Part shown: positions 4,741 to 29,909 of the stretch, in pieces
How the letters are laid out: each line of letters begins with the position of its first letter
Position numbering within the stretch: position 1 is the first letter of the stretch
From: Geobacter metallireducens GS-15
Lineage (GTDB): Bacteria; Desulfobacterota; Desulfuromonadia; Geobacterales; Geobacteraceae
Length of the DNA stretch: 32,000 nucleotides
Assembly: GCF_000012925.1 (NCBI RefSeq)
Contig: NC_007517.1
Span: forward strand, 750,001 to 782,000
Direction: 5' to 3'
Position numbers and translations under genes: made by a program
The notes under the pieces: model-generated
The model's database searches: none
What the model was told of the DNA's origin: nothing
The model's input: only the letters and a program-made list of their open reading frames with translations

Positions 4741-6060
4741 TCACCGGTTGCTTGCGGGTAGCGGTTGTCGGTAGCGGAAGCGCGCACCTGTCCCGCCTTC
4801 CCTGTTGCAAAGCGTCACGGTGCCTCCAAGCCGGTCCGCAATGCTGCGTATGATTGCCAGTCCGAGACCGCTGCCGGTTTCATTGTTTCCCGTTACCCGA
4901 TAGAACGGTTCAAACATCCGCTCCTCTTCACCTTCGGGAATCCCCGGCCCGGTATCATCCACCTGGAAAACCACATCTTCCTTGTCGCGGTACAGACTGA
5001 CATCAACCGTCCCGCCCGGCGGCGTATAGCGCAGCGCATTGTCAACGGCGTTACGCGCCAGCACCAGCAAGTCTTCCGAAGGGGCGATCAGGGTAACCTC
5101 CTCGAACCGCTCACAGCCGAAATCAATCCGTTTGCCGGCGGCGAACGGCATGTAATCCTCGATAACCTGCCTGACCAGATGACTGAAGAGCACTTCAACC
5201 GGGGGCGCTGCGCAGGATTGGTGCCGCGCCAGGCTCAAAAGCTGTTCCAGCAATTTCCCGGCCCGCTCCAGTCCTGCCTTGAGTTGCATAACCCGCAGTT
5301 TTCCCTCTGGAGATGAAATGCCGTGTTCCAGGTTTTCCGCCTGAACGGTGAGGGCCGTGAGGGGGGAGCGCAGCTCATGGGCTGCGTCGGCGATGAAACG
5401 GCGCTGCTGCTCGATGGCTGTAGCGAGGCGTTGCATCAGGCCGTTGATGGCGATAACAAAGGGGCGTATCTCCGACGGTACGCCGACCACCGAGACCGCC
5501 GCCAGGTTGGTGTCATCCCGCCGGTCCAGTTGATGGGAAAGATGCGTGACTGGCATCAGGGTGTGCCGGATGACCCAGGCTGCCAGAAAAGACAGCGTCG
5601 GCACCAGCAGCAGTATCGGGATCAGGGTGAAAAGGGCACTGTCCCGAGCTATCTCATTGCGCACCGCCGTCATCTGTCCCGTCGCAAGCCGCATGCCGGA
5701 CGGAAGGGTGAAGACGAAGAGGCGCCAGGCGGTTCCGTGGTTGTCCAGGGTTTGGAATCCTTCGGGCAATGTGGTGGGAAGAGGGGGCAGCTTCGGGGGG
5801 CGGGGAACGTTCCCCAGGGGAGAGACAACGATTCTGGCGTCGGGATCGTTGTGGTCGATACTTCCCATGGGGCTCATCCACGCATCCGACGTTTGCGCGT
5901 GACGCCCCAGCAGCAGAGCCATCTGGCGGAGCTGGTCATCCTGGAGTTCCTGGGCCTCCCGAAACGCCATGAGGTATGAACAGAACCCTGCCGCCAGGCC
6001 GCTTGCAATGGTCACCCCGGCAATCCAGAGCGAAAGCCGGCGTCGCAGGGAGCCGTTCAC
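4741..6060 (-). CDS. Two-TM sensor histidine kinase (QseC/PmrB-like class)
   Basis: H-box AAHELRSPLTAL, G1 DDTGPGI and G2 GSGLGLAI are present. Two TM segments flank a ~110-aa periplasmic loop. The preferred start is GTG 6060, which overlaps the regulator's stop as GTGA. ATG 6081 is the alternative. Confidence 0.85.
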   Translation of the reverse strand: MNGSLRRRLSLWIAGVTIASGLAAGFCSYLMAFREAQELQDDQLRQMALLLGRHAQTSDAWMSPMGSIDHNDPDARIVVSPLGNVPRPPKLPPLPTTLPEGFQTLDNHGTAWRLFVFTLPSGMRLATGQMTAVRNEIARDSALFTLIPILLLVPTLSFLAAWVIRHTLMPVTHLSHQLDRRDDTNLAAVSVVGVPSEIRPFVIAINGLMQRLATAIEQQRRFIADAAHELRSPLTALTVQAENLEHGISSPEGKLRVMQLKAGLERAGKLLEQLLSLARHQSCAAPPVEVLFSHLVRQVIEDYMPFAAGKRIDFGCERFEEVTLIAPSEDLLVLARNAVDNALRYTPPGGTVDVSLYRDKEDVVFQVDDTGPGIPEGEEERMFEPFYRVTGNNETGSGLGLAIIRSIADRLGGTVTLCNREGGTGARFRYRQPLPASNR

Positions 6061-6719
6061 TGGTTGCGATCCACCATCCATCCCATCCCCCGAACATTTC
6101 TGATTGACTCGCTCCCCAGTTTCTTGCGTACCGAATGGATCAGGAATTCGACGGCATTGCTCTCCACTTCCTCATTCCAGCCATAGATGCGGGTTTCCAG
6201 CTCATCACGGGAAAGGATTGCGCCGGGGCGCACGAGCAGAGCCTGCAGTAGCGAGAACTCACGGGCGGTGAGGCGGCAGCGCCGTTCGCCGCAGACGGCT
6301 TCCTTGCTAACCGGGTCAAGGGTAACGACCCCGTTCGTAAGAAGTGGGGCAGCGCTCCCCGTCTGGCGGCGGCTTACGGCCCGGATCCTGGCCAGCAGTT
6401 CGCCTACCGCGAACGGCTTGACCAGATAGTCGTCCGCACCCAGATCGAGGCCACGAATCCGGTCATCGAGGGCATCGCGGGCAGTGACGATGAGAACGGC
6501 GGCGTTGTTCCCGTCGCCGCGCATCCGTTCCAGCACCCCCAGACCGTCCCGTCCGGGGAGCCCCAGATCGAGGATCACCAGTTGATATTCGCCGGTTTCA
6601 ACGGCGTCGGAGGCGCTGATGCCGTCACGGACCCAGTCCACGGCATAGGCGGCATCCTTCAACGCTTGTTCCACCGCCTCGCCAATCATCCGGTCATCTT
6701 CAACCAACAAAATTCGCAT
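6057..6719 (-). CDS. OmpR/PhoB-family response regulator (receiver domain plus winged helix)
   Basis: The sequence begins MRILLVEDD and contains LVILDLGLPGRDG, DDYLVKPF and the wHTH segment LTAREFSLLQALL. ATG 6719 has a GGAGAG RBS. The longer track start at 6776 lacks one. Confidence 0.9.
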   Translation of the reverse strand: MRILLVEDDRMIGEAVEQALKDAAYAVDWVRDGISASDAVETGEYQLVILDLGLPGRDGLGVLERMRGDGNNAAVLIVTARDALDDRIRGLDLGADDYLVKPFAVGELLARIRAVSRRQTGSAAPLLTNGVVTLDPVSKEAVCGERRCRLTAREFSLLQALLVRPGAILSRDELETRIYGWNEEVESNAVEFLIHSVRKKLGSESIRNVRGMGWMVDRNQ

Positions 6720-6860
6720 TATCTCTCCGTGCGGAACGCTTGCCGGGCAAACAGAATCATCAACCGGCTTTGGCATCCGTTACGCAAGCTCGGTCAGCGC
6801 CAATGTTGTCGGATATACCATACTCCACGTCCCGAGATTGTCACGGGGAAATGCTATCCC

Positions 6861-7631
6861 TCAATGGTTTCTCTCCGCGGCCCGCTGGGGAAGGGCATAC
6901 AGACCCAGCAGGATAAAGCTGAAAAGGACCGCCGATGCCGAGTAGCGGTTCAATCCGAAGCCTCCGGCGCTGACCGGCTTGTCGAGCAGATCGCCGACCA
7001 CCGCCCCGAGGGGGCGCGTCAGGATGAAGGCGGTCCAGAAAAGAGCCGTGCGGGATATGCGGGTCCAGTAGTATGCCGCGACAACCCCTGCCAGCAGGAT
7101 GGTGAAAACGAGCGCTCCCCCTGTGTAGCCGAGGCCGGCCGTATCCGCGGTCCAGTCTCCCAGGGCGGTGCCAAGGGTTTGGGAAAACATGATGGTTACC
7201 CAGTAAAACACCTCTGCCTTCCTTGTCCGCACCGTGTCGACGGAGACGGAGCCCATGCTTCGATACCAGACAAGGAGGGATCCCATGAGAAGGGCAAAGA
7301 GAAGCGACGCTCCTCCGGCATAGCCGATACCCAGGGACCGGTCGGCAAAATCGGCCAGGGTGGTCCCCACTGTTGTCGTGGCGATGATGGTGCTCCAATA
7401 TAAGAAGGGGTGAAAACGGTCAGCGCGTACCTGCGCGGTGACGGCGACGGCAAAGATCGCGGCGAAGATGCCCGTGCCGACCAGATACCCCAGGTTCATG
7501 GACATGGATACGGCGTCGCCCCCCGTTTCACCGAGGGTTGTTGCGGCGATCTTGATGATCCAGAAGATGATGGTGACTTGCGGCACTTTGATCAGGAGTT
7601 GCCGGGTTGTCTGTTCGGGTGTTGTATTCAT
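6861..7631 (-). CDS. Integral membrane protein with a four-fold internal repeat (looks like the COG4705/DUF347 type)
   Basis: Four repeats each end in an acidic TLG-type motif: TLGETGGD, TTLADFADR, TLGTALGDWTAD, RPLGAVVGDLLDK. I count about 8 TM segments. The family name is from memory and has not been searched. Confidence 0.7.
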   Translation of the reverse strand: MNTTPEQTTRQLLIKVPQVTIIFWIIKIAATTLGETGGDAVSMSMNLGYLVGTGIFAAIFAVAVTAQVRADRFHPFLYWSTIIATTTVGTTLADFADRSLGIGYAGGASLLFALLMGSLLVWYRSMGSVSVDTVRTRKAEVFYWVTIMFSQTLGTALGDWTADTAGLGYTGGALVFTILLAGVVAAYYWTRISRTALFWTAFILTRPLGAVVGDLLDKPVSAGGFGLNRYSASAVLFSFILLGLYALPQRAAERNH

Positions 7632-7667
7632 GTGACGTATCTCCTCTCGTTGTGTTGATGGAGCGGG

Positions 7668-8264
7668 TTATTCGTTGAGCCATCCGCCTCGAATCAACGG
7701 CTTCGCGAGCAGGTGGTATGCCGCGAACATCGGCCGGTAGCAGACGTCAATCAGCAACCGTTCCCCACGGAGCACCAGCCAGGCGCTCATGACGGCCACC
7801 AGGGCGGCTCCGACCATATCAAGCGGGAAATGGACTCCCAGATAGATCCGCGCCCAGGCCACCGGCAGCCCCGCCAAAGCGACGGCAATGCCCGCCGGCC
7901 GGAAGTGCTTCCGCATTATCAGGCAAAATGAAACGGACCAGATCAGGGTCAGGTGGTCGCTTGGGAATGAGGAATCCGCCACATGCCTCAAAAAGGTATG
8001 CCCCATGTTGACCATGAACGGGCGTGGATGCGGCCAGACAAGGGCAATGACCTGGTTGGCCAGCAGGCCCGCCAAGCCGGCTACCGTTGCCTCCAGCATC
8101 GCGATGCGTCGTTGTTCATTCCCCCACAGCCAGCCATATATCAGAAGCAGCGGCACCAGCCAGATGAGCTCATCAGCCAGCCCGCGGGCAAAAGACACCA
8201 TGAGCGCGTCAGGATGAGCGGGGGCGTTAATCAGAAAAAACAGTCTATGGTTCAATGCTTCCAT
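7668..8264 (-). CDS. PAP2-family lipid phosphate / undecaprenyl-diphosphate phosphatase
   Basis: PAP2 motifs are present: PHPRP, PSDH (a PSGH variant) and ARIYLGVHFPLD (SRx5Hx3D-like). The protein is a polytopic membrane protein. Confidence 0.8.
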   Translation of the reverse strand: MEALNHRLFFLINAPAHPDALMVSFARGLADELIWLVPLLLIYGWLWGNEQRRIAMLEATVAGLAGLLANQVIALVWPHPRPFMVNMGHTFLRHVADSSFPSDHLTLIWSVSFCLIMRKHFRPAGIAVALAGLPVAWARIYLGVHFPLDMVGAALVAVMSAWLVLRGERLLIDVCYRPMFAAYHLLAKPLIRGGWLNE

Positions 8265-8549
8265 GGTTACTCCCCAGCCGGGAAATTGTCCTCCCCGGCT
8301 GCCGGTTTTTGTCGCGGATCAGTCTTCCTCATTTCGGTCGAGAGCGGTCCCTTGTGCTGCATCGACGGCGACGTCATAGGTTGGGTCCGTATGGTGAGAA
8401 CGGTAGCAGGGGAAACTTAGCTGAAAATTAGCAGGAAAAAGTTTTTTTGACCGGGGTCAAACGCTGCCGTGGTTCCATGGTATATCGTTATTCCAGAGGG
8501 AGAACATCAAACACATCGGCCGGGGCACGGCTTCGGCAAGGAGGAAATC

Positions 8550-8882
8550 ATGAGCGGCACGACCGAATCCCTGGTGGGACGCGCCATTGATCTGAAGGAA
8601 CTTATCGCATACCAGGAAGGCTCCGTTGTGAGCAAGACCCTCAACGACAAGAAGGTGGGCACAATCACCCTCTTCGCCTTCGATAAGGGGCAGGGGCTGA
8701 GCGAGCATACTGCCCCCTACGATGCCTTCGTGGAGATCGTGGACGGCGAGGCCGACATCACCATTGTCGGCACCGACCACCGGGTGAAGGAGGGGCAGTT
8801 CATCATCATGCCCGCCAATCAGCCCCACGCCCTGCGGGCGGTGACCCCGTTCAAGATGCTGCTGGTGATGATCCGGGCATAA
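8550..8882 (+). CDS. Small cupin-domain protein (110 aa)
   Basis: ATG 8550 follows AAGGAGG. Cupin-like motifs are present: G(x)5H in GQGLSEHTAPYD and the second motif in IIMPANQPHAL. Confidence 0.75.
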   Translation: MSGTTESLVGRAIDLKELIAYQEGSVVSKTLNDKKVGTITLFAFDKGQGLSEHTAPYDAFVEIVDGEADITIVGTDHRVKEGQFIIMPANQPHALRAVTPFKMLLVMIRA

Positions 8883-8965
8883 ACCTGTTTATAAAACAGT
8901 CAGGCTTTTTTCCCCATCGGCTTCGTAAGCCGGAAGTAAGGGGTTTCTATGGTAGGGCATGGGCG

Positions 8966-8981
8966 TGGCACGCCTTGTGCT
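8966..8981 (+). promoter_or_regulatory. Sigma-54 (-24/-12) promoter for nifV
   Basis: The sequence is TGGCACGccttgTGCT. GG (8967-8968) and GC (8979-8980) are at the canonical 12-nt offset. Confidence 0.7.
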
Positions 8982-9010
8982 TTAAAGTCAGGTACAATTC
9001 GAGATTAATC

Positions 9011-9051
9011 GGCAATGGCGCCCCGGAACATCAGTTCCGGGGCTTTTTTTT
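9011..9051 (+). terminator. Leader (attenuator) terminator upstream of nifV, with an overlapping ANTAR-like hexaloop hairpin
   Basis: The 10-bp stem is GCCCCGGAAC(9020-9029) / GTTCCGGGGC(9034-9043), followed by 8 T (9044-9051). The RBS and the ATG at 9067 come after that. GGC-AATGGC-GCC (9011-9022) shares its 3' arm with the terminator's 5' arm. Confidence 0.75.
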
Positions 9052-9066
9052 CGAAAGGAGCCTGCC

Positions 9067-10218
9067 ATGGAAAGCGCGACAAAGAACACAGTCATTATCG
9101 ACGACACCACTCTGCGCGACGGCGAGCAGACCGCTGGCGTCGTTTTCAGCAAAAGGGAAAAGCTGGCCATCGCCCGGCTGCTGGACGACATCGGGGTGCA
9201 GGAGCTGGAATGCGGCATCCCGGCCATGGGGGAGGAGGAGCGGGAGGTGATCCGTGCCCTGGTGGACCTGGGGCTCAACGCCCGACTCATCACCTGGAAC
9301 CGGGCCGTGATCCCCGACATCGAGGCATCCCTGGCCTGCGGCGTTGCGGCGGTGGACATCTCCCTCTCGGTCTCTGACCAGATGATTGCCCACAAACTCC
9401 GCACAAGCCGGGATGGGGTCATGGAGCAGCTGAAACGGGCCCTGGGCTTTGCCAAAGAACATGATCTCTACGTCTCCGTCGGTGGGGAGGACGCGAGCCG
9501 GGCCGACCTCGGGTTCCTGGCCGAGCTCATGGAGATCACCTGCTCCATGGGGGGAGACCGCTTCCGCTTCTGCGACACTCTCGGCATTCTCGACCCGTTC
9601 ACCATGTACGAGAAGGTGAAGGCCCTGCGGGCTGCAGCCCCCGGCCTTGACATCGAGGTCCACACCCACAATGACCTGGGGATGGCCACAGCCAACGCCC
9701 TCGCCGGCATCAAGGCTGGTGCCCGTTTTGTGAACACCACGGTGAACGGCCTCGGGGAGCGGGCAGGCAACGCGGCTCTGGAAGAGGTGGTGATGGGGCT
9801 CAAGCTTGCCTGCGGCATCGACCCGGGGATCGACACCCACCGCTTCCACGAGATTTCCCGCTTCGTTGGAAGGGCCTCCCAGCGGCCGGTCCCCCCCTGG
9901 AAGGCGGTAGTGGGGGAGCGGGTATTCTCCCATGAATCGGGGCTTCACGCCGACGGGGTCATCAAGGATGCCCGCAACTACGAGGGGTTCGATCCGGCCG
10001 AGGTGGGGCTTTGCCGACACATCGTGGTGGGGAAGCATTCGGGGACCAGCGGCCTTGTGGAGCGTTTCCGGCAGATGGGGATTGAGCTCTCCCGGCAGGA
10101 GGCAGGTGCTCTGATGGATGGGGTGCGGGCCATGGCCCAGCGGCTGAAGCGCCCCCTCTCCGACGGGGAGCTTCGAGCCCTCCATGCCGCGGGGCGGTGC
10201 GCCCTCAGGGCGGCATGA
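9067..10218 (+). CDS. nifV: Homocitrate synthase (NifV-type, HMGL-like family)
   Basis: DTTLRDGEQ and HTHNDLGMATAN motifs are present. The 383-aa length fits NifV rather than long LeuA/CimA forms. The gene has a sigma-54 promoter and sits in a nitrogen-regulation context. Confidence 0.75.
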   Translation: MESATKNTVIIDDTTLRDGEQTAGVVFSKREKLAIARLLDDIGVQELECGIPAMGEEEREVIRALVDLGLNARLITWNRAVIPDIEASLACGVAAVDISLSVSDQMIAHKLRTSRDGVMEQLKRALGFAKEHDLYVSVGGEDASRADLGFLAELMEITCSMGGDRFRFCDTLGILDPFTMYEKVKALRAAAPGLDIEVHTHNDLGMATANALAGIKAGARFVNTTVNGLGERAGNAALEEVVMGLKLACGIDPGIDTHRFHEISRFVGRASQRPVPPWKAVVGERVFSHESGLHADGVIKDARNYEGFDPAEVGLCRHIVVGKHSGTSGLVERFRQMGIELSRQEAGALMDGVRAMAQRLKRPLSDGELRALHAAGRCALRAA

Positions 10219-10267
10219 GAAGAATGGGGCACTCTGGAAATAATGAGTGCTTATATAATGTGCAAAT

Positions 10268-10304
10268 GGAGGTGGCGTAAGCGATGCGCCCCCCCTTGTT
10301 TTTT
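10268..10304 (+). terminator. Terminator after nifV
   Basis: The hairpin is GGCGTA(10274-10279) / TGCGCC(10285-10290), extendable through GG...CC pairs. It is followed by TTGTTTTTT. Confidence 0.6.
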
Positions 10305-10369
10305 CTGTCCGGCACGCCAATGCTTGCTAACCTCACGGAATTACTTGGCGGGAATTTAATGAGGCGTGA

Positions 10370-10385
10370 TGGCATGCCTTATGCT
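10370..10385 (+). promoter_or_regulatory. Sigma-54 (-24/-12) promoter for the porin-glnB-amtB operon
   Basis: The sequence is TGGCATGccttaTGCT. GG (10371-10372) and GC (10383-10384) are at the canonical offset. Confidence 0.7.
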
Positions 10386-10464
10386 AATTCGTTACCAGAA
10401 GCCGGGGGCACAAAGGTTGTGTCGCTGGCCGGGAAAAGCACTAGAGAAGCAAACGGATCAGCAA

Positions 10465-10505
10465 GGCAAAGGCGCCTTCCGCTACCAAGCGGAGGCGCCT
10501 TTTTT
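10465..10505 (+). terminator. Leader terminator in the 5' UTR of the porin-glnB-amtB operon, with an overlapping ANTAR-like hairpin
   Basis: The stem is GGCGCCTTCCGCT(10471-10483) / AGCGGAGGCGCC(10488-10499), followed by TTTTTT. GGC-AAAGGC-GCC (10465-10476) competes with the terminator's 5' arm. Confidence 0.75.
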
Positions 10506-10596
10506 GTTTACTTAGTGGAAAGGAGGCGTGTGCGGGACCCGATGAATCGTGTGCAGTGCAGATGCAATACAATAAAACTTACAAAGGAGTATGGAC

Positions 10597-11346
10597 ATGA
10601 ACAAGACACTGAAGACTTTTTCCCTGGCACTGGCACTGGTGGCCGCCACCTGCGGCGCCGCTCTGGCAACCCCCTCCACCCAGATATGGATTCCGTCCAC
10701 CGATGTCCAGGCATTCAAGACGGTTCACCTTGGCCTCGATAACTATACCCGCACGTCCAAGCACAACGGCGTCACTACCAATACCTATGATGCCGGCGTG
10801 ACGGTTGGCGTTCTCCCCTTCGAGAAGCTGCAGATGGAGGTGGGGGTCGACTATATGGAAACCGGTACCAATTCAGCCACCGACAGCAGCCCCTTCTACT
10901 TCAACGCGAAGATCGGCACCCCTGAGGATGCCCTGTTTCCCTATTCGCCGGCCCTTGCCGTCGGTGGCTACAATTTCGGTACGAAAGTGGGGGTGACCAC
11001 CCAGAACATCACGTATGCCCTGGCTGCGAAGACGCTTCCCGTCATCGGGAGAATCTCTGCCGGGTACTACCACGGCAGCGGCAGGGTGCTGGTGGACGAA
11101 AACGGAAAGGCCGCCAATGACGGCGTGCTCCTCTCCTGGGACCGGACCATGAGCGAGATTTCCGACAAGCTGTGGGCGGCAGTTGATTACCAGAGCGGCA
11201 ACAGCGGTGCAGGTGCCCTGAACTTCGGTGTTTGCTGGGCCTTCTCCAAAAACGTCTCGCTGATCGTCGGCTACGACATCTACAACAACGCCTACACCGG
11301 CGGCAAGAATACCATCACCACGCAGCTCGACATCAACATCCCTTAG
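10597..11346 (+). CDS. Predicted outer-membrane beta-barrel (porin-like) protein of unknown specificity
   Basis: A signal peptide is present (MNKTLKTFSLALALVAATCGAALA). The rest shows alternating hydrophobic/polar beta-strand periodicity with aromatic girdles. ATG 10597 has better spacing from AGGAG (10585-10589) than ATG 10591. Confidence 0.65.
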   Translation: MNKTLKTFSLALALVAATCGAALATPSTQIWIPSTDVQAFKTVHLGLDNYTRTSKHNGVTTNTYDAGVTVGVLPFEKLQMEVGVDYMETGTNSATDSSPFYFNAKIGTPEDALFPYSPALAVGGYNFGTKVGVTTQNITYALAAKTLPVIGRISAGYYHGSGRVLVDENGKAANDGVLLSWDRTMSEISDKLWAAVDYQSGNSGAGALNFGVCWAFSKNVSLIVGYDIYNNAYTGGKNTITTQLDINIP

Positions 11347-11369
11347 GTCTAAACGACATTCGGAGGTAA

Positions 11370-11711
<342 letters not shown>

Positions 11712-11745
11712 GAGGCAGGAATAGATCAGTCCATGGAGGTAACCA

Positions 11746-13212
11746 ATGAAGTTTAAACTATCATTTGTCGCATTGCTGGCAACTGTCGCGCTCTCGCTCC
11801 CGGTCGCCCTCCTGGCAGAGGAGGTGAAGACCGCCGCTCCGGCACAGGCTGCCCTGTCCTCGGCCCAGACGGCTGCCCTTGCGCCCGCTGTCACCGCGGC
11901 GCCCGCCGCTGCTCCGGCCACCCCTGCCGCACCGAAAAACGTCGATCCGGTTCTCAATACCGGCGACACCGCCTGGATGCTCGTCTCCGCCGCCATGGTC
12001 CTCTTCATGATTCCGGGCCTTGCCTTCTTCTACGGCGGCATGGTCCGGGGCAAGAACGTCCTCTCGACGATCATGCACTCCTTTGTCGCCATGGGGATCG
12101 TCGGTGTGCAATGGGCGGTGATTGGCTACTCCCTCTCCTTCGGCCCTGACATCGGCGGCGGCCTCCTCGGGAACCTGAGCAAGGCGCTCCTGAACGGTCT
12201 CATCACCTTCAAGGATGGCAACCCGGTCTACGCCCTCTTTCAGAACGTGCCGACCGCACCGGGGGCCATCCCTGAGTACGTCTTCGCCATGTTCCAGTGC
12301 ATGTTCGCCATGATTACCGTTGCCCTCATCTCCGGCGCCCTGGCCGAGCGGGTGAAGTTCTCCGCCTACTGCGTCTTCGTGCTCCTCTGGACCACCCTGG
12401 TGTACGACCCCTTGGCCCACTGGGTCTGGATGAGCGACGGCTGGCTCTTCAAGAAAGGCGCTCTCGACTTCGCCGGCGGCACGGTTGTTCACCTCTCCTC
12501 CGGTATCTCGGCCCTGGCGTTTCTCATCTTCCTCGGCAAGCGGCACGGGTTTCCCCACGAGCGGATGGCGCCCCACAGCCTGCCGCTGACTATGCTCGGC
12601 GTCGGCATGCTCTGGTTCGGCTGGTTCGGCTTCAACGCCGGTTCCGCCATCGTCGGGGCCAACTGCTCCGACGCGGCGGGGGGGCTGGCCGGTCTCGCCT
12701 TTGCCACCACGACCATCGCGCCGGCTGCCGGCGGCCTTTCCTGGATGATCGCGGAATGGATTCACGCGGGCAAACCTTCCGCCCTCGGTTTCGGTTCCGG
12801 TGTCGTTGCCGGCCTGGTCGTCATTACCCCCGCTGCCGGTTTCGTGCAACCCGGGGCCGCCATCCTCATGGGACTTGCGGCGGGCGTGGTCTGCTATGGT
12901 GGCGTGCTGCTGAAGGCCAAGCTCAAGTACGACGACTCCCTCGACGCCTTCGGTGTCCACGGAGTGGGGGGGACCTTCGGCGCCCTCACCACCGGTATCT
13001 TCGCCACCGTCGGCGCCACGGGGCTCCTCTCCGGCAATGTCTCCCAGTTCTTAACCCAGGTGATTGCAGTCGTGGCCGCCGGCGCCTATGCCTTCATCGT
13101 CACCCTTGTTATTGCCTTTGTCCTCCACAAGACCATCGGGCTCCGCGTGGAAAAGGAAGACGAGATCATGGGGCTCGACCAGACCCAGCATTCCGAGTCG
13201 GCCTACAACTGA
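11746..13212 (+). CDS. amtB: Ammonium transporter (Amt family) with a signal peptide and an Ala/Pro-rich N-terminal linker
   Basis: Signature segments DFAGGTVVHLSSG and FGWFGFNAGS are present. I count about 11 TM segments. The gene lies directly downstream of P-II. Confidence 0.93.
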   Translation: MKFKLSFVALLATVALSLPVALLAEEVKTAAPAQAALSSAQTAALAPAVTAAPAAAPATPAAPKNVDPVLNTGDTAWMLVSAAMVLFMIPGLAFFYGGMVRGKNVLSTIMHSFVAMGIVGVQWAVIGYSLSFGPDIGGGLLGNLSKALLNGLITFKDGNPVYALFQNVPTAPGAIPEYVFAMFQCMFAMITVALISGALAERVKFSAYCVFVLLWTTLVYDPLAHWVWMSDGWLFKKGALDFAGGTVVHLSSGISALAFLIFLGKRHGFPHERMAPHSLPLTMLGVGMLWFGWFGFNAGSAIVGANCSDAAGGLAGLAFATTTIAPAAGGLSWMIAEWIHAGKPSALGFGSGVVAGLVVITPAAGFVQPGAAILMGLAAGVVCYGGVLLKAKLKYDDSLDAFGVHGVGGTFGALTTGIFATVGATGLLSGNVSQFLTQVIAVVAAGAYAFIVTLVIAFVLHKTIGLRVEKEDEIMGLDQTQHSESAYN

Positions 13213-13240
13213 GCGTTTTGCCGATTCACTCGCAACATTG

Positions 13241-13270
13241 AAGCCGCCTCTATCGGGGCGGCTTTCTTTG
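13241..13270 (+). terminator. Terminator after amtB
   Basis: The stem is AAGCCGCC(13241-13248) / GGCGGCTT(13257-13264), followed by a T-rich run whose first two T's are stem bases (13263-13269). Confidence 0.75.
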
Positions 13271-13369
13271 TGCCTCAATTGTGGGCGCTTTGCTGCCTAA
13301 ATGGTGTGCATGTTTTGCCCTGTTTGCTTGGATTGCTTTGTAACTTGTTGATAATACGAATGGTGCTTC

Positions 13370-13385
13370 TGGCACGCCTCGTGCC
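13370..13385 (+). promoter_or_regulatory. Sigma-54 (-24/-12) promoter for the small histidine kinase gene
   Basis: The sequence is TGGCACGcctcgTGCC. It is almost identical to the nifV promoter and has the canonical GG/GC offset. Confidence 0.7.
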
Positions 13386-13432
13386 TACAAGGTATGAGGC
13401 ACCCTATTTAACCGGTCTGCACCAGAGGACCC

Positions 13433-14179
13433 ATGGCGGATGCACTGGCGAAATATCTCCCCGACAACGGCAACGTGGAAGGGGAACTTCTGGAACTGCT
13501 TGCCTTCAACGAGAAGATGGCGGAACTGGGGAGGATGGCGGCGGGAGTGGTTCACGAGCTGAACACCCCCCTGTCGGTCATTGTCTCGGCCACCCAGATG
13601 ATCCTCCGGGAGGAGGAACTGCCCGAGTTCGTCCGCGAGATGGTGGAGCGGGTCAACGAGGAGGCCCACCGCCTGGCCGAGCTGACCAAGGGGGTCCTCT
13701 CCTTTGCCCGGCGGGATAGTGGGGGGCGGGCCGAGGCGGATGCGAACCAGGTCATCGGCGAGGTCATGACCTTCCTCCGCTTCGAGGCCGGGAAGCGGTC
13801 CATCGGTGTCATCGAGGACCTGGACCACCGGCTCCCCTTCATCGCCGCCGACGCCAACCGGGTGAAACAGGTGATCATCAACCTGGTCATGAACGCCTTC
13901 CAGGCCATGGGTGAGGGGGGAACTCTCTTCCTGCGGACGGTTCAGGAGAGCGAGACGGCCGTTACGGTGCAGGTGGCCGACACCGGTCCCGGCATCCCCC
14001 CTGACGCCCAGGAGCGGATCTTTACCCCCTTCTTCACCACCAAGGAGCCGGGGGAGGGGACCGGCCTCGGCCTCTTCATCACCCGCAAGCTCATGGAAGG
14101 AATCGGCGGCGCCATCGCCGTGAAGAGCGTGGTGGGAGAGGGGACCACCTTCACCCTGACCTTTCCCGTTGCGGAATAA
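13433..14179 (+). CDS. Cytoplasmic histidine kinase with no sensor domain (GnfK-like nitrogen-fixation regulator kinase)
   Basis: H-box VHELNTPLSVI, N-box INLVMNAFQA, G1 DTGPGI and G2 GTGLGL are present. There is no TM segment and only ~25 aa before the DHp domain. Its position after amtB matches what I recall for gnfK in G. sulfurreducens. Confidence 0.8.
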   Translation: MADALAKYLPDNGNVEGELLELLAFNEKMAELGRMAAGVVHELNTPLSVIVSATQMILREEELPEFVREMVERVNEEAHRLAELTKGVLSFARRDSGGRAEADANQVIGEVMTFLRFEAGKRSIGVIEDLDHRLPFIAADANRVKQVIINLVMNAFQAMGEGGTLFLRTVQESETAVTVQVADTGPGIPPDAQERIFTPFFTTKEPGEGTGLGLFITRKLMEGIGGAIAVKSVVGEGTTFTLTFPVAE

Positions 14180-15278: not shown

Positions 15279-15444
15279 TTTCTTATCACGAGCGACCGAG
15301 GGACTGGCCCTATGACGTCGCGGCAACCCCCCGCAAGGGGACGGTGCCAAATCCTGCGGAACGGCAACGTTCCGGGAGATAAGGAAGAGCGTTGCCGCCG
15401 TAACGGCGAAAAATCCTCTTCCGCACCCCGGAAGGGGATTTTTT
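15279..15444 (+). promoter_or_regulatory. SAM-I (S-box) riboswitch with a terminator expression platform
   Basis: The aptamer reads TTCTTATCACGAGCGACCGAGGGACTGGCCCTATGA...GGCAACC...GGTGCCAAATCCTGC...GGGAGATAAGGAA. The terminator is ATCCTCTTCCG / CGGAAGGGGAT plus TTTTTT (15412-15444). GGAAGAG (15383-15389) can pair with CTCTTCC (15415-15421) as an antiterminator. Confidence 0.93.
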
Positions 15445-15465: not shown

Positions 15466-16641
15466 ATGAACATCGCAACCCAGACAGCACAGATCGGACT
15501 TGAGTGGGACACCCGCACCGGCGCGGTGACGGTCCCCATCTACCAGACGGCCACCTTCCGGCACCCGGGGCTCGGCCAGAGCACCGGCTACGACTATACC
15601 CGCTCCGGCAACCCCACCCGGCAGGCCCTGGAGGAGGGGATCGCCCGCCTGGAGGGAGGCGCCCGGGGCTTCGCCTACGCCTCGGGCATGGCCGCCATCG
15701 CCAATCTCCTCCTCCTCTTCAAGAAGGGGGACCACTTGGTGGTGACCGAGGATCTCTACGGCGGTACCTGTCGTCTCTTCGACCAGATCTTCACCCAGTA
15801 CGAGCTCTCCTTCACCTACGTGGACACGAGCGACATCAAGGCAGTGCGTGCCGCCATCCGCCCAGAAACGAAGGCCCTCTTCGTGGAGTCCCTCACCAAC
15901 CCGCTCCTCAAGGTAGCCGACATCGCGGCCCTCTCGGCCCTCTGCCGGGAGCGGGGGCTTCTCCACATCGTGGACAACACCTTCCTCACCCCCTATCTCC
16001 TGCGCCCCTTCGACCATGGGGCCGACATCACCGTCTACAGCGCCACCAAGTACCTGGCCGGCCACAACGACACGGTCTCCGGCCTCGTGGCGGTGAAGGA
16101 CCCGCAGCTGGCCGAGCGGGTCTACTTCCTCCAGAACTCGGTGGGTGCGGTCCTGGGCCCCCAGGATTCCTGGCTCACCATCCGGGGGATGAAGACCCTT
16201 TCGGTGCGCCTCGACCGACAGCAGGAGAACGCAGGGCGGGTCGCCCAGTGGCTTTCGAATCACCCGCGGGTGCGGAAGGTCTACTACCCCGGCCTCTCCG
16301 GCCACCCCGGCCACCCCGGCCATGAACTCCTCGCCCGCCAGGCACGGGGCTTCGGTGCCATGATTGCCTTCGAGGTGGACGAGCATGCGCTCGTGGAGCG
16401 TTTGCTTCTGAAGACGGAAGTGATATCCTTCGCCGAGAGCCTCGGCGGGGTGGAAACCCTCATTACCTTCCCCCAGGTCCAGACCCATGCCGATATTCCG
16501 CCCGAACTGCGGCAGCGGCTTGGGATCAACGATGTGCTCCTGCGCCTCTCCGTGGGGATCGAGGACGCGGACGACCTGATCGACGACCTGGCCCAGGCGT
16601 TTGAAGGCGGGGACCAGGGATCGGGAACCGGGGACCGGTAA
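15466..16641 (+). CDS. Cys/Met-metabolism PLP enzyme (cystathionine gamma-synthase / beta-lyase family), paralog 1
   Basis: IPIYQTATF, the PLP-Lys motif YSATKYLAGHND and the family-typical C-terminus LRLSVGIEDADDLI are present. The extra tail GGDQGSGTGDR is encoded by a G-rich repeat. Confidence 0.9.
   Translation: MNIATQTAQIGLEWDTRTGAVTVPIYQTATFRHPGLGQSTGYDYTRSGNPTRQALEEGIARLEGGARGFAYASGMAAIANLLLLFKKGDHLVVTEDLYGGTCRLFDQIFTQYELSFTYVDTSDIKAVRAAIRPETKALFVESLTNPLLKVADIAALSALCRERGLLHIVDNTFLTPYLLRPFDHGADITVYSATKYLAGHNDTVSGLVAVKDPQLAERVYFLQNSVGAVLGPQDSWLTIRGMKTLSVRLDRQQENAGRVAQWLSNHPRVRKVYYPGLSGHPGHPGHELLARQARGFGAMIAFEVDEHALVERLLLKTEVISFAESLGGVETLITFPQVQTHADIPPELRQRLGINDVLLRLSVGIEDADDLIDDLAQAFEGGDQGSGTGDR
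16609..16633 (+). repeat. GGGAYC-type tandem array (four G-runs; fits the G3+N1-7 quadruplex pattern)
   Basis: The sequence is GGGGaccaGGGatcGGGaaccGGGG. A related array lies at 26104-26132. Confidence 0.7.
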
Positions 16642-20498: not shown

Positions 20499-20674
20499 AA
20501 TCCCCCCGCTGTTCCCCCCATGGGGTTCGCCGTCTCCCGTTTCAGATTTCCCCGTAACGCTTTCGCAATTCTGCAAATAATACTGGATTTTTTTATGACG
20601 TATACATAGTATGTCCTTTGACTTCGCTAACTTTCAGGACAGGGGATCCCGTGCGCCGCTATTTTTTTGCCTTC

Positions 20675-22618
20675 ATGAACAACCTGAAGCTGCGCTGGAA
20701 GATGCTGGTGCTGGTGCTCCCCCTCGTGACGGTTCCGATCGTTCTGGTCGGTGGGGTCATCAGCTACATTTCAACCCAACAGGCGTACCGGGGGATCACC
20801 CAGACCAGCAAGGACGACCTGGCCCACATGGCCAGTTTCACCATCGACCTCCTCAATTCCCACTACCAGCAGTTCCAGGTATACAAGCAGGACAAGCAGC
20901 GGAGCACCAACCTGGAGCTGGCCACCCTCACCACCCTTGCCTACAACATGGTGGAGGCCCAGCATCGCCAGTACAAGAGCGGCAAGGTCGACCTCCGGAC
21001 CGCCAAGGAAGAGGCCCGCAAGGCCCTGAAACGGGTCAACGTGGGGACGACCGGCTACATCTACGCCATGTCCACCAAGGGGGATCTGGAGGTGCACATC
21101 GCCCGGGAGGGGGAGAACGTCTACGAGGAGAAGGACGAGAACGGCCGCCCCTTCATCCGGATCATGTGCGAGAACGCCCTGAAGTCCAAGCCGGGGGAGG
21201 TCCTCTACATCGTCTACCCCTGGCGCAACCCGGTGCTCGGCGACAAGTATCCCCGCAACAAGGTGGTTGCCTACCGTTATTTCCGGGAGTGGGACTGGAT
21301 CATCGCCTCGGGGGGCTACCTGGAGGAGACCTACGAAGACCTCGCCTTTGAGCGCCGCTCTTTCCAGGAGCTGAAGGATAAGATCAAGAGCAAGAAGGTG
21401 GGGGATACCGGCTACATTTTCTGCATGGACGACAAGGGGAACTTCACCGTTCACCCCGGCGGGGAGGGGAAGAATTTCCTCAACGCCGTGGATTCCAGCG
21501 GCCACAAGTTCATCAAGGAAATGGTGGAGAAGAAGCGGGGCTGGATCCGCTATCCCTGGCTCAACCCCGGGGAAAAGAACCCGCGGATGAAGATCGTCCG
21601 CTACGACTACTTCAAACCGTGGGGATGGATTGTGGCGGTCGGCTCCTACGAGGACGAGTTCTACGGGGAGGCCAACAAGATCCGGGGCCGGATCGCAGCC
21701 TCCATGACGCTGCTGACCATTGTGACGAGTGTTGTGGCCACCGGGCTGGTCTTCCTGGCGGCCAAGATTTTCACTCAGCCCATCATGCACATGATCGACG
21801 TGATCCGTAGGGTGAAGAAAGGGCGGCTCGACGAGCAGATGGAGGTGGATGCGGGGGATGAGCTGGGCGAGATGGCGTCGGCCTTTAACCTGATGACCGC
21901 CATGATCCGCCAGAACAAGGAGATGGAGGCAAGCCTCGCCCAGCAGGGGAAGATGGCGTCCCTCGGTGTCCTCTCCTCGGGGGTGGCCCACGAGATCAAC
22001 AACCCACTCGGGGTTATCCTTGGCTACGCCTCCTACATCGAGGGGAAAACCAGCGAGGATGATCCCAACTACAGGTTCATCCACGAGATCAAGCGGGAGA
22101 GCAAGCGGTGCAAGAAGATCGTCCAGGATCTCCTCTCCTATGCCCGCACCCCCAAGCCGGCCCTGGAGTGGACCGACGTGAACGACCTGCTGGGGCAGAT
22201 CGTCGATTTCGCCGCCAATCACACCGACATGCACCACGTGACCGTCGTGAAGGATTTCTCTCCCGAATTGCCCCGGGTCATGGTCGACGGCGACCAGATC
22301 AGGCAGGTGGCCATCAACCTGATCCTGAACGCCGGAGCCGCCATGTCCGGGGAAGGGACCCTGACGGTGAAATCGTTCCTGGACGGCGAGGGGTACGTAA
22401 ACATCGTCTTCTGTGACAACGGGGCGGGAATACCCGCCGAGGACATCGAAAAAATTTTCGAGCCCTTCTTCACCACCAAGGCCAAGGGGACGGGGCTCGG
22501 CCTTGCCATCACGAAGCAGATCATCGAGATGCACCATGGCAAGATCAGCATCCTGAGCGAAGTGGGGAAGGGGTCCGACGTGATTGTGAAGCTGCCGGTG
22601 GACCGGGACGAGCTGTGA
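20675..22618 (+). CDS. Sensor histidine kinase with two tandem periplasmic Cache-like domains plus HAMP
   Basis: An internal duplication is visible (TGYIYAMSTKGDLEVH...YPWRNP...WDWIIASGGY versus TGYIFCMDDKGNFTVH...YPWLNP...WGWIVAVGSY). H-box VAHEINNPLGVI, DNGAGI and GTGLGLAI are present. The start is uncertain: ATG 20675, GTG 20651 or TTG 20618. Confidence 0.88.
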   Translation: MNNLKLRWKMLVLVLPLVTVPIVLVGGVISYISTQQAYRGITQTSKDDLAHMASFTIDLLNSHYQQFQVYKQDKQRSTNLELATLTTLAYNMVEAQHRQYKSGKVDLRTAKEEARKALKRVNVGTTGYIYAMSTKGDLEVHIAREGENVYEEKDENGRPFIRIMCENALKSKPGEVLYIVYPWRNPVLGDKYPRNKVVAYRYFREWDWIIASGGYLEETYEDLAFERRSFQELKDKIKSKKVGDTGYIFCMDDKGNFTVHPGGEGKNFLNAVDSSGHKFIKEMVEKKRGWIRYPWLNPGEKNPRMKIVRYDYFKPWGWIVAVGSYEDEFYGEANKIRGRIAASMTLLTIVTSVVATGLVFLAAKIFTQPIMHMIDVIRRVKKGRLDEQMEVDAGDELGEMASAFNLMTAMIRQNKEMEASLAQQGKMASLGVLSSGVAHEINNPLGVILGYASYIEGKTSEDDPNYRFIHEIKRESKRCKKIVQDLLSYARTPKPALEWTDVNDLLGQIVDFAANHTDMHHVTVVKDFSPELPRVMVDGDQIRQVAINLILNAGAAMSGEGTLTVKSFLDGEGYVNIVFCDNGAGIPAEDIEKIFEPFFTTKAKGTGLGLAITKQIIEMHHGKISILSEVGKGSDVIVKLPVDRDEL

Positions 22619-22656
22619 CGGCCGGTAGGAACGAATTTTTTTCACAGGGGTAGAGA

Positions 22657-24039
22657 GTGTCCGAAAACAAGCGCATCATGCTCATCGACAACGAGGAGGG
22701 GCTCTGCCGGATGATGGAGGCGGTGCTTCTGGATAGCGGCTATGGCGTGAAGGGGTACACCCGCTCCTTCGAGGCGGTGGAGGAGTTTCGGCCCGGCGAC
22801 TGGGATCTGGTGGTCTCGGACATCAAGATGCCGGGGATGGATGGTCTGGAGGTGCTCCAGCGGATCAAGGCCAAGGAGCCGGCCATTCCGGTCATCATGA
22901 TCACCGCCTACGCCACGGTGGAGATGTCGATCCAGGCCCTGCGCCGGGGCGCCTACGACATGCTGACCAAGCCCTTCGAGCCCGAGGAGCTCCTCTACCG
23001 GGTGAAAAACGCCCTCAAGCACACCGAGCTTCTGGAAGAGAACCGGGAGCTGCGCGAGAAGCTGGTGGGTAAGTTCCGCTTCGACAACATAATCGGCGCC
23101 TCGGACGGGCTCAAGGGGGTTTTGGAGAAGGTGGAGAAAATCGCCATCCGGGACACGTCGGTGCTCATCACCGGCGAGTCGGGGACCGGCAAGGAGCTCA
23201 TCGCCCAGGCGATCCACTACAACTCGGTCCGCAAGGAAAAGAAGTTCGTTGCCATCAACTGCGGTGCCCTGCCGGAGACGCTCCTGGAGAGCGAGCTCTT
23301 CGGCTACCGCAAGGGGGCCTTCACTGGCGCCAAGGAAAACCGCCAGGGACTTCTGGAGGCGGCCGACGGGGGAACCCTGTTTCTGGACGAGGTGGGGAAC
23401 CTCCCCATGAACGTGCAGAAGACGCTTCTCCGTTTCCTCCAGGAGCAGGAGTTTCTCCGCATTGGCGACACCACCCCCACCAAGGTGGACGTGCGGATCA
23501 TCTCGGCCACCAACGCCGACCTGCGGGAAGGGGTCAAGAGCGGCGCCTTCCGGGAGGACCTCTACTACCGCCTCAACGTGGTGAACCTCCATCTCCCGCC
23601 GCTGCGGGAGCGCAAGGGGGATATCCCGCTCCTGGCGGCCCATTTCATTGCCCAGCAGAACAAGAAATTCGACACCGCAATCAAGGGGTTGTCACCCGAC
23701 TCCCTGGAAGCGGCCGTTGGCTATGCCTGGCCCGGCAACATCCGCCAGCTCAGGAACGTGATCGAGGCCTGCACAGCCATGGAGAGCGGCGAATACATTA
23801 CGCTGTCGGTCCTCTCCCAGTTCATCGAGCTTCCCGAGCCACGGGACGAGCCGGCCGTGGAGGCGGAAGGGGAGGAGGGTGCCTACGCCCAGGCCCTTTC
23901 CCGCTTCGAGATGGACTACATCCGGGGACTGTTGCGGAAAAACCGTGGCAATGTGGAGGCAGCCGCCCGTGAGGCGGGGATGAACATGGCCACCATCTAC
24001 CGGAAAATGAAGAAGTACAACCTGCGCCGCGAAGAATAG
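22657..24039 (+). CDS. Sigma-54-dependent response regulator (NtrC family: receiver, AAA+, Fis-type HTH)
   Basis: The receiver segment VVSDIKMPGMDG, Walker A GESGTGKE, the sigma-54 contact loop GAFTGA and a C-terminal HTH (NVEAAAREAGMNMATIYRKMKKY) are present. The start is GTG 22657. Confidence 0.93.
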   Translation: MSENKRIMLIDNEEGLCRMMEAVLLDSGYGVKGYTRSFEAVEEFRPGDWDLVVSDIKMPGMDGLEVLQRIKAKEPAIPVIMITAYATVEMSIQALRRGAYDMLTKPFEPEELLYRVKNALKHTELLEENRELREKLVGKFRFDNIIGASDGLKGVLEKVEKIAIRDTSVLITGESGTGKELIAQAIHYNSVRKEKKFVAINCGALPETLLESELFGYRKGAFTGAKENRQGLLEAADGGTLFLDEVGNLPMNVQKTLLRFLQEQEFLRIGDTTPTKVDVRIISATNADLREGVKSGAFREDLYYRLNVVNLHLPPLRERKGDIPLLAAHFIAQQNKKFDTAIKGLSPDSLEAAVGYAWPGNIRQLRNVIEACTAMESGEYITLSVLSQFIELPEPRDEPAVEAEGEEGAYAQALSRFEMDYIRGLLRKNRGNVEAAAREAGMNMATIYRKMKKYNLRREE

Positions 24040-28556: not shown

Positions 28557-29909
28557 TGTTGAGTGCCACGACATCGTGGACAGAAAAATGTGCCAGCACA
28601 TCGTAGACAAAGTTCTCTGACAATCGAATAGTCGCCACGGCATTCTGTGAACACCACATCAAACTCGGAGGTGTTCATGGAAGATAAAAACAAGCAGCTT
28701 CGGGTGTTGGCCGTTCAACGGTTCAGAAACGGCGAAACCCCGGAATCAATTTGCACATCACTCGGCAAGTCTCGTTCCTGGCTATACAAATGGGTTGCTC
28801 GCCAGAATGGAGATGACCCTGTATGGAGTGACGAGCGATCCCGATGCCCACAATCCATGCCGAACCGTACAACGGCAGAGATTGAAGAAATCGTCAAAAT
28901 GGTTCGCCTCAATCTCTACAACAAGGGCTTGTTCTGTGGTGCACAGGCCATCCTGTGGGAGTTGGAGGACCTGGGTGTCAAGCCGTTGCCTTCTACCAGA
29001 ACCATCAATCGGATTCTTGCAAGGAATGAACTGACACATCGGCGCACCGGCAAATACGAAGCCAAAGGGACGCTTTACCCAGTTCTGCCGTCAGCGTTGC
29101 CGAACCAGACGCACCAAGCTGATCTCGTTGGTCCATGCTATCTGACAGGGCCAATTCGCTTCTACAGCCTGAATGTTGTCGATACAGCAACCGTCAGGTG
29201 CGGGTTGCACTCATCTCGGTCCAAAGCTGGTCAGATGGTCATTGACGGTTTGTGGGAAGTCTGGAAACGACTAGGCATCCCAGAACGACTCCAGGTTGAC
29301 AATGCCATGTCATTCTTCGGCAGCCCGACACATCCCCGCGGCATGGGACCACTGATTCGTCTTTGCCTGCATAACGATGTCGAACCATGGTTCATACCCA
29401 TGGCTGAACCATGGAGAAACGGCATGATCGAAAAGTTCAACGACCGGTACCAACAACGGTTCCTCGGCAAAGTCATCATGACTTCAGAAGAGGAATTGAA
29501 AGTCGGCTCACTGACCTTTGAGCAGCGACACAACAGCAAGTATCGCTACAGCAAGCTAAAGGGGAGTACGCCGCTGAAAGCACTGGCCACCTCGCATGTG
29601 CAACTGAGGTTCCCGACTGAGGATGAACCTCCCAGGCATCGCCTGAAGAAGCCAGAAGTCGGAAAATATCATGCTGTCCGCCTTATCCGCAGTGACCTGA
29701 AGCTGAACATCTTCGGCGAATGCTTCTCGGTTCCACCGGAGACAGCGCTTGAATACGTGGTGGCGACTATCGATGTCAAAGAACAGAAACTGAAACTCTT
29801 CCTGGATAAAAATCAGGTCGAGGAATTCGATTACAAACTGCGGTGATTCAGATGAGTGTCCACGATGTCATGGCACAAAAAGTTGTCCACGATGTCGTGG
29901 CACTCAACA
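28557..29909 (+). mobile_element. Intact IS element (1353 bp), IS481-like, with a 6-bp target-site duplication
   Basis: The 26-bp terminal inverted repeats are perfect: TGTTGAGTGCCACGACATCGTGGACA at 28557-28582 and its complement at 29884-29909. Direct repeats TGTAGG flank the element at 28551-28556 and 29910-29915. There is a single DDE transposase ORF, and GC content is visibly lower than in the flanks. Confidence 0.88.
28677..29846 (+). CDS. DDE transposase (N-terminal HTH plus rve integrase core)
   Basis: ATG 28677 follows GGAGG. The catalytic contexts are QADLVG, QVDNAMSF and WRNGMIEKFN. Confidence 0.88.
   Translation: MEDKNKQLRVLAVQRFRNGETPESICTSLGKSRSWLYKWVARQNGDDPVWSDERSRCPQSMPNRTTAEIEEIVKMVRLNLYNKGLFCGAQAILWELEDLGVKPLPSTRTINRILARNELTHRRTGKYEAKGTLYPVLPSALPNQTHQADLVGPCYLTGPIRFYSLNVVDTATVRCGLHSSRSKAGQMVIDGLWEVWKRLGIPERLQVDNAMSFFGSPTHPRGMGPLIRLCLHNDVEPWFIPMAEPWRNGMIEKFNDRYQQRFLGKVIMTSEEELKVGSLTFEQRHNSKYRYSKLKGSTPLKALATSHVQLRFPTEDEPPRHRLKKPEVGKYHAVRLIRSDLKLNIFGECFSVPPETALEYVVATIDVKEQKLKLFLDKNQVEEFDYKLR

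Follow-up and report, generated by a model that had tools for sequence, protein, structure and literature searches.

The nifV leader of Geobacter metallireducens: a probable GnfK/GnfR-type antitermination target with a single hexaloop hairpin

Homocitrate from NifV is needed for assembly of the nitrogenase cofactor. In the 32,000-nt stretch of Geobacter metallireducens DNA analysed here (the window), an intrinsic terminator is positioned between a sigma-54 (RpoN) promoter and nifV. The leader contains a small hexaloop hairpin, P2, that shares nucleotides with the terminator (Table 1), and the evidence set out below indicates that it probably attenuates transcription in a protein-dependent manner, after the GnfK/GnfR (REC-ANTAR) fashion. 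The first-pass annotation of this DNA had proposed a sigma-54 promoter, a 10-bp/8-U terminator ending 15 nt before the nifV ATG, and a GGC-AATGGC-GCC hairpin, with A at loop position 1 (A1) and G at loop position 4 (G4), that shares its 3′ arm with the terminator and so excludes it. Each of these elements is borne out in the sequence, the hexaloop base for base. The distance that it assigned to the hairpin stands in part: P2 lies 30 nt after the GC of the −12 element, but at ~+20 from the predicted transcription start (~8992, range 8991–8993, inferred from the promoter position), not ~30 nt past that start.

Table 1. Coordinates of features in the window
Feature	Position	Strand	Details
Sigma-54 (RpoN) −24/−12 promoter of nifV, TGGCACGCCTTGTGCT	8966–8981	+	GG 8967–8968; GC 8979–8980
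ANTAR-type hexaloop hairpin P2, GGC-AATGGC-GCC	9011–9022	+	Identified from sequence; stem GGC 9011–9013 paired with GCC 9020–9022; loop AAUGGC 9014–9019 (A1 = 9014, G4 = 9017)
Intrinsic terminator (attenuator), GCCCCGGAAC-atca-GTTCCGGGGC + T8	9020–9051	+	Terminator scan; 10-bp stem, 9020–9029 with 9034–9043; loop 9030–9033; U8 tract 9044–9051
Shine-Dalgarno sequence GGAG of nifV	9057–9060	+	6 nt before ATG, outside terminator
nifV, homocitrate synthase	9067–10218	+	TIGR02660, 538.7 bits (cut-off 462.9)
Second element of same family, ahead of hypothetical-glnK-amtB	10370–10505	+	1.4 kb downstream of nifV leader; sigma-54 promoter 10370–10385; P1-like hairpin 10407–10423; P2 GGCAAAGGCGCC 10465–10476; 15-bp terminator 10468–10502; T run 10500–10505
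Sensorless histidine kinase, gnfK-like	13433–14179	+	HisKA and HATPase_c domains only; promoter 13370–13385
SAM riboswitch (RF00162)	15280–15385	+	97.1 bits; upstream of 391-aa ORF 15466–16641
666-aa ORF, then NtrC-type response regulator	20618–24039	+	Regulator 22657–24039 (REC, Sigma54_activat, HTH_8)
ORF with HTH_23 and integrase-core (rve) domains	28647–29846	+	Probably an insertion-sequence transposase

The nifV promoter, TGGCACGCCTTGTGCT, differs from the consensus, TGGCACGNNNNTTGCW, at one position. The number of sigma-54 matches in the window is not above chance (3 versus 4.1 expected, with up to two mismatches); the promoter is credible because of its position, its conservation and a published prediction for the G. 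sulfurreducens nifV gene, GSU0937, and not because of match counts. In particular, orthologous nifV leaders keep an equivalent sigma-54 promoter, and the supplements of Leang 2009 list an RpoN promoter for GSU0937 with a PromScan score of 93, ending 99 nt before the ATG; Leang 2009 makes no mention of termination. Intergenic regions of the window contain three promoters of this type, ahead of nifV (8966), the hypothetical-glnK-amtB operon (10370) and a histidine kinase gene (13370). A search for a shared site of the activator GnfM, by k-mer enrichment upstream of 84 promoters, yielded only a weak GCACAAA (15/84) and nothing convincing upstream of the nifV promoter.

The terminator, eight of whose ten pairs are G-C, is the first site listed in a terminator scan of positions 6000–14000 and has a computed energy of −21.8 kcal/mol. 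The P2 3′ arm comprises the first three nucleotides, and hence the basal pairs, of the terminator stem, making P2 and the terminator mutually exclusive. With P2 enforced, a 7-bp stem is left, followed by three unpaired nucleotides before the U tract. P2 alone has an energy of −3.9 kcal/mol and cannot outcompete the terminator without help, as would suit an antiterminator stabilized by a protein. General knowledge of intrinsic terminators leads us to infer that the residual 7-bp stem no longer terminates; some termination through this hairpin upstream of the U tract could nonetheless persist with P2 held. A minimum-free-energy fold of positions 8990–9075 also contained long-range pairing between the 5′ leader and the region past the U tract; this pairing is not conserved in the related loci L001 or L004 and was dropped. 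A leader peptide was likewise rejected: the ATG at 9015 opens a 120-aa ORF, but it lacks a Shine-Dalgarno sequence and depends on loop position 3, which is variable.

A regulatory system that acts on leaders of this kind has been described in G. sulfurreducens. Ueki & Lovley 2010 (NAR 38:7485, PMC2995071) reported that GnfL/GnfM activates RpoN promoters of nitrogen-fixation genes; that the leaders of a subset of these genes, namely nifH, nifEN-nifX, the GSU0938 operon and the GSU2799 radical-SAM operon, contain terminator-like signals; that nifH transcripts end prematurely in gnfK or gnfR mutants, which defines a GnfK/GnfR-dependent antitermination; and that GnfR, a REC-ANTAR protein phosphorylated by GnfK, binds RNA carrying CAGGCAAGGGCGCC. 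The GnfR targets share a conserved CAGGCAANGGCGCC upstream of and overlapping the terminator, and nifH of G. sulfurreducens is the only gene for which GnfR-dependent read-through and binding to RNA were demonstrated (PMC2995071). The first-pass annotation had mentioned GnfR antitermination at Geobacter nitrogen-fixation genes, in agreement with this paper.

The P2 sequence of the nifV leader, GGCAATGGCGCC, is an exact match to the core, GGCAANGGCGCC, of the published GnfR site. Specifically, over the 14 nt at 9009–9022, TCGGCAATGGCGCC, the 12-nt core is identical to the published consensus and the two leading bases are TC, versus CA in the consensus. The only other exact core match in the window is the P2 of the glnK-amtB leader. 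The pattern GGCAANGNNGCC occurs three times in the window versus 0.67 expected, and two of the three occurrences overlap terminators downstream of sigma-54 promoters. The placement of GGCAATGGCGCC relative to the terminator is that of the published nifH case, which supports the earlier proposal of an ANTAR/GnfR-type antitermination leader before nifV, with GnfR as the presumed regulator.

The literature consulted on this regulon does not list nifV. The main text of Ueki & Lovley 2010 mentions neither nifV nor homocitrate (PMC2995071); no Geobacter genome has a nifV leader among the dual-hairpin matches in the supplementary table of Ramesh 2012 (PMC3369931); GnfR and nifV occur together in no paper of the searchable literature; and GnfR is not discussed in recent ANTAR structure and review papers. 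As far as the literature was checked, the nifV leader belongs to a known regulon in which it had not been listed.

To place the leader in its family, we compared 80 Geobacterales loci encoding NifV at 71–93% identity; the window's NifV shares 94% identity with the protein of G. grbiciae and 93% with that of G. hydrogenophilus. Under strict criteria, GGC-AAnGnn-GCC fused to a terminator is present within 200 nt upstream of nifV in 37 of the 80 loci; a further 6 have the motif but fail the strict terminator rule (relaxed criteria). In 25 loci nifV closely follows another gene, and in 18 of these the element opens the operon, preceding a nifB-like radical-SAM gene. Some lineages among the other loci have a sigma-54 promoter but no attenuator. 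No G. sulfurreducens entry is among the best 120 NifV homologues, and a scan of metagenomes with a 17-mer from the promoter, aimed at the G. sulfurreducens nifV leader, returned chance matches only. In locus L008 (~4861–5000) the terminator of the nifV leader is split by a ~70-nt insertion of repeated ggttcaagg / gaactttgaac units in its loop, which looks like a small palindromic insertion element.

Across 801 kb of related loci the pattern GGCAA.G..GCC occurs 167 times, versus 1–27 times for five control patterns of like design, and 87 of the 167 occurrences overlap a terminator. Four classes of gene follow the 91 motif-plus-terminator elements of these loci (nifV, nifB-like, nifH and the porin-like hypothetical gene of the glnK-amtB operon), and in 85 of the 91 a sigma-54-type promoter lies within ~100 nt upstream. 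The register between motif and terminator is fixed, while the distance between motif and promoter ranges from 15 to 101 nt, which argues for a role at the RNA level. The same observation counts against the view that GGCAATGGCGCC is a DNA operator, bound by a protein downstream of the promoter, a reading to which the partly palindromic character of the motif (GGC...GCC, GGCGCC) and its nearness to the promoter lend some colour; phosphorylated GnfR, moreover, binds RNA carrying the motif (PMC2995071), and we regard a DNA operator as exceedingly improbable.

The GGC/GCC stem of P2 is invariant in 37/37 nifV leaders; with all three pairs invariant, covariation offers no proof of pairing, and a linear recognition sequence would look alike. 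Among 87 family members, variation in the loop is confined to positions 3, 5 and 6, with 1, 2 and 4 fixed, where the search pattern itself required A1 and G4; A1 and G4 are also present in the deviant leaders that we inspected by eye, with the exception of L047. By its sequence, this pattern of fixed and variable positions is the ANTAR hexaloop signature. The P2 5′ arm GGC and loop bases A1, A2 and G4 are invariant although they are positioned outside the 10-bp terminator core of the nifV leader.

The terminator helix, in contrast to the P2 stem, covaries. An initial MAFFT alignment of 37 leaders had the terminator arms out of register, and a model-guided alignment was used instead. In the 46 elements so aligned, the helix is 94.7% paired, with 133 double-change cells, versus ~48–62% when the partner columns are slid; the alignment, being model-guided, is biased toward the model, and the margin in pairing is large. 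Covariation also links loop positions 5 and 6 of P2 to the terminator 3′ strand (AU/GU/GC and CG/AU), where G4 has U or C as its partner; the variable loop positions are thus under constraint from the structure that competes with P2. Half of the P2 loop, in addition to the 3′ arm, is accordingly absorbed by the terminator in most relatives; in the nifV leader of the window, loop position 6 forms a C-U mismatch and the 10-bp core makes up the solid stem.

The hairpin and U8 tract could in principle belong to a different transcription unit. The cupin gene upstream (8469–8882) is on the same strand as nifV, and the interval from its stop codon to position 9020 is free of strong terminators, so the element might serve as the cupin terminator; alternatively, promoter and terminator might together delimit an independent sRNA of ~60 nt. 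As to the cupin gene, the sigma-54 promoter sits between its stop codon and the terminator, and the order promoter, motif, terminator, nifV is kept where the upstream gene differs or diverges. Specifically, in L026 and L029 the upstream gene (a GGDEF regulator or a chemoreceptor) is divergent and the element is still present; the terminator cannot serve the upstream gene there. As to an sRNA, a search of positions 8850–10650 against Rfam 15 (gathering thresholds, and E-values up to 10) gave no family that reaches its gathering threshold on the nifV or the glnK-amtB leader; the sub-threshold matches, to sRNA and other unrelated families, cover the terminator (for example Spot_42, 31.5 bits versus a gathering score of 80). 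These matches, on which an sRNA reading could draw, are far under threshold and rest on the terminator, and a terminated leader would arise as a by-product of attenuation anyway. We consider this pair of readings very unlikely.

The gene order in the window (cupin, nifV, hypothetical, glnK, amtB, 248-aa histidine kinase) is syntenic with G. sulfurreducens GSU0937 (nifV), GSU0938–0940 and GSU0941 (gnfK). GSU0940 (amtB) ends the GSU0938 operon, so that GSU0941 is next by locus-tag order, and GnfK (GSU0941) is described as lacking a sensor domain (PMC2995071). The kinase of the window directly follows amtB and has its own sigma-54 promoter and a leader free of attenuators; synteny marks it as the putative gnfK orthologue, the kinase that would activate GnfR. 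The 32-kb window contains no ANTAR gene, as is expected, because gnfR (GSU2822) adjoins nifH in G. sulfurreducens. REC+ANTAR genes, Pfam-confirmed, lie beside nif genes in L024 and L059, and REC+ANTAR orthologues at >50% identity are present in at least 15 related loci. The synteny with GSU0937–0941, together with the gnfK-like kinase and a known glnK-amtB target in the same window, counts in favour of a GnfR-type attenuator ahead of nifV.

The leader of the hypothetical-glnK-amtB operon contains another element of this family, the counterpart of the published GSU0938 operon target and of the dual-hairpin match of Ramesh 2012 in G. sulfurreducens. Its 15-bp terminator engulfs the entire P2 loop and the 3′ arm. 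Upstream of P2 there is a P1-like hairpin, GGCAC-AAAGGUU-GUGUC, with a 7-nt loop that has A1 and G4; the second pair of its stem is G-U, G-C or A-U among the window, L002 and L003, indicating that the stem covaries. The span from this hairpin to P2 is ~70 nt, in agreement with the 72-nt match of Ramesh 2012 in G. sulfurreducens. A scan with a covariance model for the ANTAR motif had been suggested in the first-pass annotation. Rfam supplied no ANTAR-type match. Our own model, built from 17 nifV leaders, matched the 32 kb in two places only: in the nifV leader and in the glnK-amtB leader, the latter lying outside the training set and scoring 21 bits (E 0.014).

The glnK-amtB leader brings out what the nifV leader lacks. 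In the window's nifV leader, no P1 (A..G.. hexaloop) hairpin is present between the predicted start and P2, as had been remarked earlier from the sequence; the observation extends to nifV leaders at large: 1 of 34 has an upstream A..G.. hexaloop hairpin versus 1.1 expected by shuffling. The corresponding counts are 7/14 for nifH leaders (1.1 expected) and 3/8 for porin-like leaders (1.0 expected). The sole local hairpin upstream of P2 in the window, UCGA-GAUUAA-UCGG at 8999–9012 (+), was rejected as a P1: it lacks A1 and G4, overlaps the P2 5′ arm, and is restricted to the four closest relatives. The arms of this hairpin are able to pair, which would tie up the first two G of the P2 5′ arm; its stem bases are kept in L001–L004 while the six loop bases almost all differ, and it is absent from more distant nifV leaders. 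It could be an anti-antiterminator, or the pattern could reflect merely shared ancestry. Elsewhere in the sample, the distant relatives L072 (~1250–1317, a Geoalkalibacter MAG) and L075 (~925–1010, a Desulfuromonadales MAG) have CCGGC-AACGCC-GCCGG before the nifV P2, so that a dual form exists for nifV outside Geobacter.

The nifB-like leaders extend the single-hairpin arrangement. In ~19 of them, ~1.8 kb upstream of nifV (including L014, L023, L026, L030, L032, L033, L041, L057, L062, L064, L067, L073, L077 and L078), the hairpin GGC-AACGAC-GCC starts 15–19 nt past the C of the −12 element, corresponding to ~+4 to +8 of the RNA by predicted starts, which leaves no room for a P1. On these sequences, the regulon appears to mix dual- and single-hairpin targets, with nifV in the single class.

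The missing P1 is the main argument for the one serious rival, in which the terminator is a constitutive, unregulated damper of nifV expression and the motif, without P1, is not a working GnfR site. EutV antitermination requires dual hairpins, the Ramesh 2012 scan has no nifV match in Geobacter, and neither the nifV leader nor its orthologues have a P1. Against the damper speak the invariance of the 5′ arm GGC and of A1, A2 and G4, which the 10-bp terminator core does not need, and the recurrence of the same single hairpin ~5 nt from the predicted start in ~19 nifB leaders; and a terminator of −21.8 kcal/mol with a U8 tract before an essential nif gene would be costly if never relieved. On balance we judge a constitutive damper unlikely, and probable GnfR control of the nifV leader, presumably through a single hairpin, is the reading to which the analysis leads. 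How far the single hairpin suffices is a separate matter: we put forward as a tentative proposal, somewhat short of an even chance, that Geobacter nifV leaders and, more strikingly, the nifB leaders with a hairpin ~5 nt from the predicted start act as natural ANTAR antiterminators with one hexaloop each. Phosphorylated GnfR would then prevent termination by capturing a lone hairpin, without P1.

With GnfR-type attenuation of nifV, events would proceed as follows. Under nitrogen limitation, the sigma-54 promoter would fire, activated by GnfL/GnfM as in the published cascade. By default, the ~60-nt leader would fold into the 10-bp/U8 terminator, and transcription would stop 15 nt before nifV. 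Upon phosphorylation of GnfR by GnfK, an ANTAR dimer would bind the weak hexaloop hairpin GGC-AAUGGC-GCC and keep it formed; the terminator would lose its three basal G-C pairs, which adjoin the U tract, leaving the shortened stem separated from the Us, and polymerase would read into nifV. With gnfK and gnfR switched on by the same master system, the circuit would work as a feed-forward AND gate and would delay or sharpen the expression of nifV. The short leader RNA would probably be expected when gnfK or gnfR is mutated, or in the early phase of nitrogen limitation, and not, as first suggested, under ammonium excess, because GnfL/GnfM switches sigma-54 promoters on only in nitrogen limitation.

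The nifV leader does not overturn current understanding. A nifV gene under the GnfK/GnfR gate would extend the regulon beyond structural and assembly genes and ammonium transport to the supply of a cofactor precursor, and would show that the gate is widespread in Geobacterales. If the single-hexaloop proposal is true, dual leaders (nifH, glnK-amtB) and single leaders coexist in one regulon, perhaps with different thresholds or timing, and for the ANTAR field the regulon would be a natural comparison of one- and two-hairpin targets of one regulator.

Three comparisons with known systems place the nifV leader. With the GnfK/GnfR targets it shares an RpoN promoter, a leader terminator, GGCAANGGCGCC overlapping that terminator, a nitrogen-fixation gene downstream and the neighbourhood; it differs in the TC that replaces CA before the core and in the absence of nifV from the main-text targets. 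With the glnK-amtB leader it shares the P2 core, the terminator overlap and the promoter class, whereas the glnK-amtB leader has ~80 nt from the −12 element to P2, has the upstream P1-like hairpin, and is already in both published lists; in Geobacter, the genome-wide dual-hairpin scan of Ramesh 2012 matched the GSU0938-type operon, a radical-SAM/GNAT operon, nitrogenase subunits and a NifU-like gene (PMC3369931). The canonical ANTAR target RNA (EutV, NasR, AmiR) comprises two hexaloop hairpins, P1 and P2, with A1 and G4, set at a constrained distance, P2 overlapping the terminator, and antitermination by EutV and NasR in vivo requires the two together (PMC3369931, PMC8934654); Walshe 2022 (PMC8934654), in redefining the minimal unit of binding to be one hexaloop, raised the question of one versus two hairpins. 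The nifV leader resembles the canonical target in the regulator family (REC-ANTAR, presumed for nifV), in a P2 with A1 and G4, and in the exclusivity of P2 and terminator; it departs from it in that P1 is absent, with only ~19 nt of RNA, devoid of an A..G.. hexaloop, before P2, in that the stem is invariant in sequence and not merely in structure, and in that loop position 2 is also fixed (A). By all sequence criteria, the nifV leader is an ordinary member of the GnfK/GnfR regulon, but its single-hairpin architecture sets it apart from the canonical ANTAR target.
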